A stretch of 64,000 bases of DNA, taken from a virus. This document shows positions 24,181-24,351 of the stretch, piece after piece (position 1 is the stretch's first letter; the number at the start of each line of letters is the position of its first letter). The translations under genes and the position numbers were made by a program. The notes under the pieces were generated by a model. It ran no database searches, was not told the DNA's origin, and saw nothing but the letters and a program-made list of their open reading frames with translations. The stretch lies in IMG/VR virus record IMGVR_UViG_3300025940_000007, positions 1 to 64,000 of that record, one strand, 5' to 3'.

Positions 24181-24249
24181 TCGTTCACCCGCCCGTTGAT
24201 ATAAATCAACCCGACCTTAACCCACGGAGAATCATCGCGCAAGAAAATG

Positions 24250-24279
24250 TTGCATCGTACAAAAACAGCGTGTTACAAT
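24250..24279 (+). promoter_or_regulatory. sigma70-like promoter for the tas operon
   Basis: TTGCAT-18 nt-TACAAT with an extended -10 TG. Confidence 0.6.
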
Positions 24280-24301
24280 TCGCACGCCGAGTAATCGGCA
24301 C

Positions 24302-24351
24302 GAGCCCCGGCCAATGTTCGGTTGAAACCCTATAAATCAATGCCGGGGCTC
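24302..24351 (+). ncRNA. TIGR-like unit U8 in the tas operon leader
   Basis: GAGCCCCGG-CCA-ATGTTCGGT-TGAAACCCT-ATAAATCAA-TG-CCGGGGCTC. Confidence 0.88.

Follow-up and report, generated by a model that had tools for sequence, protein, structure and literature searches.

Which DNA is read by an RNA guide whose closest match lies beside the very operon that encodes it? This question is raised by U8, the first guide of the rightward early operon of a phage. The best approximation to the U8 target in the whole phage is a near-self site lying over an AT-rich element between a Cro-like gene and the tas operon. The DNA analysed here (the window, 64 kb) is the first part of one 76.7-kb phage record, and a first-pass annotation of its sequence had read the match either as RNA-guided autoregulation, analogous to that by Cas-regulating mini-guides, or as silencing of the equivalent switch in a competitor. 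In the TIGR-Tas papers the natural targets and the role of TIGR systems are stated as open because 9-nt spacers give too many false matches. The near-self guides of this phage, with their silent imperfections and a perfect match in kin, offer a way round this false-match problem.

The phage encodes a stem-loop TIGR-TasA system

Besides genes for a terminase, tail proteins and an endolysin, the phage carries two divergent early operons. The features around the region between them are as follows.

23929 to 24180, minus strand: Cro/repressor-like helix-turn-helix (HTH) regulator, 83 aa, start codon at 24180
24195 to 24212, unstranded: putative early control element, with the palindrome GTTGATATAAATCAAC at 24195-24210 and the motif TATAAATCAACCC at 24200-24212
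24201 to 24218, plus strand: imperfect near-self site of U8, a candidate target, in which 24201-24209 equals spacer B
24300 to 24353, plus strand: U8, a stem-loop tigRNA unit of 54 nt, first guide of the rightward early operon
24373 to 25017, plus strand: orf214, family not recognised, overlapping the tasA start (ATGA)
25014 to 25985, plus strand: tasA, 323 aa, coiled coil and Nop domain, without a nuclease domain

The product of 23929-24180 has a Pfam match to YdaS/P22_Cro under the curated cut-offs and matches PHROG 35, a transcriptional repressor. Its gene is the first of the leftward early replication operon and is followed by genes for a GcrA-like protein, RNase H, a primase and a helicase. 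The GcrA-like gene, a cell-cycle regulator homologue directly after the Cro-like gene (23460-23954, minus strand; Pfam PF07750, E = 6e-7), is also kept in the relative L003, and this conservation hints at an alphaproteobacterial host. On the rightward side, homologues of orf214 stand just upstream of tasA in L003, L004, L007, L011 and L015, and orf214 may be a conserved partner of the TasA clade.

Searches of GenBank phages returned neither a DNA nor a protein match to the phage, and no relatives of the Cro-like protein were recovered from IMG/VR viral contigs. The stretch is contained in 23 public rhizosphere or soil runs, with no RNA data set listed among the holders; the contigs of four runs are identical wherever they cover it, and therefore supply no variants for testing covariation. 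In other metagenome assemblies of the phage, contigs break at the U8 stem (at 24302, 24309 and 24339, within 24293-24339), likely because the genome contains about 20 copies of the stem sequence.

The tas product had been annotated as a nuclease-less Tas protein, and structure and profile searches bear this out. Residues 1-42 form a disordered Lys-rich tail and the remainder a helical Nop/coiled-coil fold (AlphaFold model, pLDDT 75.8). With this model as the Foldseek query, the best 10 matches were all TasH/TasR cryo-EM structures (E 6e-5 to 1.4e-3), followed by IS110 recombinases and then by far weaker Nop5 matches, while profile comparison with the PDB returned only 9MTY (TasR, E = 4.7e-4) and TasH (E = 0.012). 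In Pfam the protein has a weak match to PF02371, and neither Pfam nor PHROGs gave a nuclease family (RuvC/HNH). Being without a nuclease domain, it falls in the TasA class, whose members are RNA-guided transcriptional repressors according to published TIGR-Tas work. More than 170 homologues of this TasA were found, the nearest at 76% and 72% identity, and all 12 of the related viral-contig loci searched with the unit model have the same units around tas.

We found about 39 guide units in the window (37 from covariance-model and alignment searches, plus L1 and L2), all on the plus strand and spread over about 53 kb, from 5.6 to 58.6 kb. Twelve are solitary, standing in gene leaders or intergenic gaps, about nine follow tas and 15 form a second array.

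25926 to 26477, plus strand: TIGR array 1, about nine units, starting at the 3′ end of tasA
35994 to 36730, plus strand: TIGR array 2, 15 units, two stem types alternating

The two stem types of array 2, one of the GAGCCCGGC type and the other of the (A/G)TCGGTCGC type, are in strict alternation with a period of about 105 nt. Two units lie within the tasA frame (25091-25144 and 25926-25979). These intra-tasA units fall in segments that are disordered in the model (residues 1-39 and 307-323), as is likewise seen in other stem-loop systems.

An alignment of 31 units has the form stem-CCA-9 nt-TG-4 nt-CCA-9 nt-TG-stem, with the box nucleotides as its sole invariant letters. Compensatory changes are present in 9 of the 10 stem pairs, 94% of the cells are paired, and none of 500 shuffles equalled the score. 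Boxes C (CCA) and D (UG) are as in the published ParTasR; furthermore, the loop TGAAACCCA, present in five units, is that of TaTasR tigRNA1 (UGAAACCCA), and the loop of U8 is TGAAACCCT. The TIGR-Tas papers already report stem-loop tigRNAs, dispersed units and units located within the tas ORF. The phage system thus belongs to the stem-loop TIGR-TasA family, all of whose testable defining features were found in it.

U8 itself is a genuine TIGR guide unit, as the first-pass annotation had held. It scores 54.2 bits with covariance model R1, can be aligned with 30 other units, the stem covarying in 9 of 10 pairs, and folds at -23.9 kcal/mol (z = -3.8). Its parts, on the plus strand, are listed below.

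24302-24311 paired with 24342-24351: stem, 10 bp, GC-rich
24311-24313: box C, CCA
24314-24322: spacer A, ATGTTCGGT
24323-24324: box D′, TG, followed by the loop AAAC
24329-24331: box C′, CCT
24332-24340: spacer B, ATAAATCAA
24341-24342: box D, TG

Processing of TIGR units has been linked in published TIGR-Tas work to a CUU motif at the base of the stem. The sequence after the array units is ACCCTTTC, and that after U8 is ACCTCTAATTT, without CTT.

The geometry in which a unit reads DNA can be taken from tigRNA1 and its optimised target in the supplement of the Science paper, where the target strand is listed as A+rc(B) (Faure et al., Science 2025, PMC12045711), so that the opposite strand reads B+rc(A). 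The B+rc(A) order used in the first pass is thus the same as that of the published TaTasR pair. When units of the phage and of the relatives G003, G004, G005 and G009 were pooled, base 9 of spacer A was complementary to base 9 of spacer B in 67 of 144 (25% expected, P = 2e-8), with control position pairs at 24-28%. This bias suggests that targets in the clade are typically 17 bp long, the two spacers sharing the central base pair. U8 fits the rule (A9 = T, B9 = A) and, since most of the validated near-self sites described below have a 1-nt overlap, the 17-mer register of the first-pass annotation is reasonable.

U8 matches a site in the early control region

Both reported matches were recomputed as stated: spacer B is exact at 24201-24209, and the 17-mer with a 1-nt overlap agrees at 14 of 17 positions over 24201-24217. 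Read as an ungapped 18-mer in B+rc(A), the site agrees at 15 of 18 positions (spacer B 9/9, spacer A 6/9), with mismatches at 24210, 24215 and 24217 that correspond to A9, A4 and A2; in the 17-bp register the mismatches are A6, A5 and A2. The identity between spacer B and the site extends to a 10-mer, TATAAATCAA. The site begins 21 bp upstream of the Cro-like gene's start codon at 24180, in agreement with the earlier placement about 20 bp upstream of cro-1 in a divergent early control region, and ends about 85-93 bp upstream of U8.

Such a match could be a coincidence, in which an AT-rich guide 9-mer recurs in a nearby AT-rich element and the 6/9 half is noise. A composite score of 15/18 means little when taken alone: at least 15/18 is attained somewhere in the 76.7-kb genome by about a third of the 37 units, one of them with 16/18, and sites with a full half plus at least six matches in the other ("9 + at least 6") number 3 genome-wide where about 1.3 are expected. 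Furthermore, the observation was picked after the fact, and the TATAAA(T/G)CAACCC sequence under the match is kept in a relative for reasons unconnected to guides. What is unusual is the perfect half combined with the closeness. ATAAATCAA occurs in the window in two exact copies, 24201-24209 and 24332-24340 (0.08 expected by chance), and when the 119-bp intergenic region was compared with 74 spacers, spacer B of U8 was the only one at 9/9, all others reaching at most 7/9. Across 288 units, covering 250 kb of the phage and its relatives, two have a "9 + at least 6" site less than 300 nt from their own unit (U8 and one inside an array), while five control geometries applied to the same 288 units gave zero. 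For the phage genome, the expected number of such sites within 300 nt of their own unit is about 0.02. Chance also sits poorly with the other solitary guides, half of which have near-self sites that are demonstrably non-random and of like quality and distance. This rarity near the own unit, taken together with the pattern in the sister guides, leaves chance with a small share of the probability, and we regard coincidence as quite unlikely.

Six solitary guides match neighbouring genes with silent mismatches

Near-self sites were found for six of the 11 solitary guides other than U8, at 66-2330 nt from the guide and with 13/17 to 15/18 matches in B+rc(A); the remaining five have none.

7975 to 8028, plus strand: solitary guide; site 8333-8349 in gene 7966-8865, 14/17, three of three mismatches at codon position 3
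8886 to 8939, plus strand: solitary guide; site 7492-7508 in gene 6367-7953, 14/17, three of three mismatches at codon position 3
13919 to 13972, plus strand: solitary guide; site 14275-14291 in gene 14202-14552, 15/17, two of two mismatches at codon position 3
15738 to 15791, plus strand: solitary guide; site 14480-14497 in gene 14202-14552, 15/18, three of three mismatches at codon position 3
50368 to 50435, plus strand: solitary guide L1; site 52746-52762 in gene 50439-52793 (minus strand), 15/17, two synonymous mismatches
58562 to 58634, plus strand: solitary guide L2; site 58683-58699, 66 nt away, 13/17, four of four mismatches in one codon phase

The guides at 13919 and 15738 flank and match one and the same gene, which encodes 116 aa (14202-14552), and the sites of the five frame-checked guides are 314-2330 nt away. 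At every site the mismatches share one codon phase (17/17), which is position 3 for all 13 mismatches in the five frame-checked sites; the probability of such agreement in phase is about 1.5e-4, or 6e-7 with the frame taken as given. In five genomes we counted 25 matches near their own guide in the correct geometry against 10.7 expected (P = 1e-4), with 2-8 in the controls, and four near-complete relatives have the same enrichment and phased sites. Cross-targeting among five related genomes amounted to 3 matches versus 1-2 in the controls, that is, no signal.

For L1, the predicted 17-mer TTCGACTGTGACCTTCT is perfect in two related phage fragments (L057, 1735-1751; L058, 8502-8518), where it lies 31 nt from the start codon of a homologue (79% aa identity) of the gene that L1 abuts. 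No guide units were detected in either fragment, and in L058, the longer of the two, the gap is about 115 nt shorter where the resident phage (G000) has the L1 cassette. Among candidate natural targets that match both spacers, the best for L1 is thus 17/17 in two kin phages, and the best found for U8 is 15/18, in self. Because of the phased mismatches, the enrichment and the perfect kin target of L1, we take near-self matching to be genuine in the phage family; one guide at the least is directed against the allele of kin phages and spares that of its own phage.

The same data bear on whether U8 is an evolutionary relic, with spacers once copied from, or matching, the adjacent sequence and now leaving a trace with no present target. 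Local spacer origin would entail the closeness of guides and sites (66-2330 nt), the origin of TIGR spacers is an open question in the literature, and, matches in unrelated viruses aside, no present-day perfect U8 target was found in viral contigs, 10 related records and 401 genomes. Neutral drift, however, would place about half of the mismatches on the spacer side and at random codon phases, whereas 17 of 17 are phase-coherent. L1, moreover, is still perfect against living kin alleles, the boxes of the units are intact and their stems covary. A relic is thus an unlikely account of U8.

The U8 site is the only non-coding one among the near-self sites of the phage, and resembles the sister sites in quality and closeness. 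Since its target is non-coding, the codon-phase test that validates the sister guides is inapplicable to U8. In the relative L012 (= G005), a 16/18 site (8+8) at 10883-10900 lies in an intergenic gap 112 nt upstream of its own unit at 11012, and could thus be a near-self case in non-coding DNA comparable to that of U8.

The site overlaps a conserved element of the early control region

Of the relatives examined in which a Cro-like gene and a guide unit face each other, L003 is the closest (TasA 61% and Cro 41% identity). The element at 24195-24212 aligns with TCACC-N10-TATAAAGCAACCC in L003, giving the consensus TCACC-N10-TATAAA(T/G)CAACCC, and on the strength of this alignment we consider the AT-rich core a conserved control element. 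In L003 the core sits 17 nt downstream of TTACAA and resembles a -10 box; in the window it lies within the palindrome GTTGATATAAATCAAC. A consensus promoter scan found no promoter in the intergenic region of the window and none in that of L003, and the promoter boxes named in the first pass, the tas -35 box among them, were not recovered. The element may be a -10-like element or an operator. An inverted repeat surrounds TATAAA, GTTGA...TCAAC in the window (24195-24210) and CTTGC...GCAAC in L003 (10446-10470), with arms changed on both sides, symmetry retained and a spacing of 6 nt versus 12 nt in L003; this symmetry-keeping repeat suggests an operator or a small hairpin.

In L003 and L004, which both have a Cro-like gene facing a guide unit, no spacer matches the element at 8/9 or better, and the core 9-mer of L003, ATAAAGCAA, has a single occurrence in the 36.7-kb record. 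Hence no conserved self-regulatory pairing is seen. One candidate was rejected: both spacers of L003 unit 8472 match at 8/9 in their own intergenic region, at positions 46 nt apart, which is the chance level.

These comparisons bear directly on autoregulation, in which TasA-U8 would act on the resident site 24201-24218 through its spacer-B half and damp the divergent early promoters, its own included. The position of the match speaks for this, as the site overlaps the conserved control element beside the operon encoding U8 and TasA, and the guide has its partial match (9/9 + 6/9) in the intergenic stretch that precedes U8, orf214 and tasA. In addition, TasA proteins are published to repress transcription, stepwise and partly engaged binding intermediates have been described, and TaTasR nicked an E. 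coli site with full spacer B and a reported 6/9 of spacer A, so that weak engagement of the resident site is possible. In other published experiments, however, single central or seed mismatches, or double mismatches, abolished Tas nuclease activity. In the resident site three mismatches fall within the A half, among them A4 (18-mer) or A5/A6 (17-mer register); spacer A is also the one reported to engage first in stem-loop TasA. A nuclease-less effector needs no partial complementarity, and L003 has the same element without a matching spacer, the pairing thus not being conserved. Furthermore, the six sister near-self sites lie in coding regions and have no regulatory position, so that imperfect self sites look avoided rather than used. 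Of the autoregulation proposed in the first pass, the partial match upstream of the own operon stands, while the three A-half mismatches and the closest relative, which has no matching spacer, count against it; the likeness to Cas-regulating mini-guides holds in form, and only in form. We consider autoregulation improbable, and slightly more so than coincidence.

U8 may target the early control region of kin phages

By analogy with the sister guides we place U8 in the kin-targeting class, where it may be an allele-discriminating guide for the early-control variant of kin phages, with the resident copy protected by mismatches. To this reading we give an even chance.

If U8 is such a guide, TasA-U8 would read 17-18 bp of DNA, with spacer B pairing to one strand and spacer A to the adjoining stretch of the other. 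The cognate target would be a variant of the control element in close kin phages, whether co-infecting, superinfecting or present as resident prophages, and its predicted perfect sequence is ATAAATCAA(A)CCGAACAT. By sitting on the kin variant, TasA-U8 would block early transcription. The resident copy would be a tightly linked "immune" allele, protected by the three spacer-A mismatches, and tight linkage of the guide to the protected allele would avoid recombinants in which the guide is combined with a sensitive allele, a logic known from poison-antidote and homing cassettes. On this reading we infer three things: U8 is made and taken up by TasA, some kin phage has a promoter bearing the perfect site, and binding there represses it.

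A perfect U8 17-mer or 18-mer (18-mer with gaps of 0-2, both geometries) was found among viral contigs only in unrelated viruses of 25-50% GC. None of 10 related phage records has a U8 target with three or fewer mismatches, and none was found in 401 genomes of Xanthobacteraceae, the family of a MAG carrying a Tas relative. The perfect 18-mer of guide U7 was likewise absent from viral contigs. The relatives examined are distant (TasA at most 64% identity), and the missing perfect site, the outcome of a check that the first-pass annotation had proposed, therefore neither refutes nor proves the silencing idea. Competitor-switch silencing gains indirect support from the six sister guides with silent mismatches and from the perfect match of L1 in kin. 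Against it count that no perfect U8 site was found in the relatives examined, that L003 and L004 lack a spacer matching the element, and that five solitary guides are without any near-self site.

On a wider view, the solitary guides and their mismatch-protected neighbour alleles could form poison-antidote cassettes in conflicts among close kin phages, TasA with these guides binding sensitive alleles of kin genomes and U8 shutting off the early control region and the TIGR-Tas operon of kin phages; we hold this tentatively, at somewhat below even. If true, it would supply the first natural target set and a biological role for TIGR-TasA. If U8 follows the logic of its sisters, it would be a natural instance of a nuclease-free effector led by RNA to silence the early promoter of a rival phage, and would show how a PAM-less system separates self from kin.

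Relation to known systems

The phage system shares with published stem-loop TIGR-TasA (Faure et al., Science 2025, PMC12045711; Xu et al., bioRxiv 10.64898/2026.09.09.750476; Guan et al., bioRxiv 10.64898/2026.08.11.744272) a nuclease-less Nop/coiled-coil effector and units built of a stem, box C CCA, two 9-nt spacers, box D UG and a 9-nt loop. Further shared traits are the B+rc(A) geometry, carriage by phages and units placed before, after and, in disordered regions, within the tas ORF. It differs from the systems of those papers in that single guides also occur dispersed along about 53 kb of the phage, and in that several have imperfect targets in adjacent DNA, with one guide perfect in kin and U8 pointing to its own early control region. 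Three points appear to be new here: an indication of what TIGR guides naturally target, silent mismatches that tell self from kin, and a guide directed at an early control region.

The proposal resembles VIPR, a phage-encoded and nuclease-free RNA-guided repression of competing phages, in which many guides are directed against lysis-lysogeny switch regulators such as cro and cI (bioRxiv 10.64898/2026.04.26.720920). VIPR differs in its unrelated, RAMP-like Vipr protein and in its guide code, GGY/NN repeats that skip wobble positions, and self-matching sites are not reported for it. The phage system is not a VIPR member, and VIPR is its nearest functional precedent.

Guides that regulate their own effector are known among Cas systems, namely the long-form tracrRNA of Cas9, the CreR/Cas-regulating RNAs of types I and V, and scaRNA. 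Like U8, they are encoded beside the effector gene, and it is in the promoter region of that effector that they find a partial match. These guides need the partial match against self-cutting, whereas TasA is without a nuclease and the sister guides point to allele discrimination.

Free-standing homing endonuclease cassettes of T-even phages (cf. PMC13096335 on SegB) cause marker exclusion and are flanked by immune alleles. In contrast to these, the agent here would be an RNA guide with a trans-acting DNA-binding protein that has no nuclease. The two have in common a small cassette beside a gene whose kin allele is attacked, with silent substitutions protecting the carrier allele. As with L1, the homing cassette is absent from sensitive kin.
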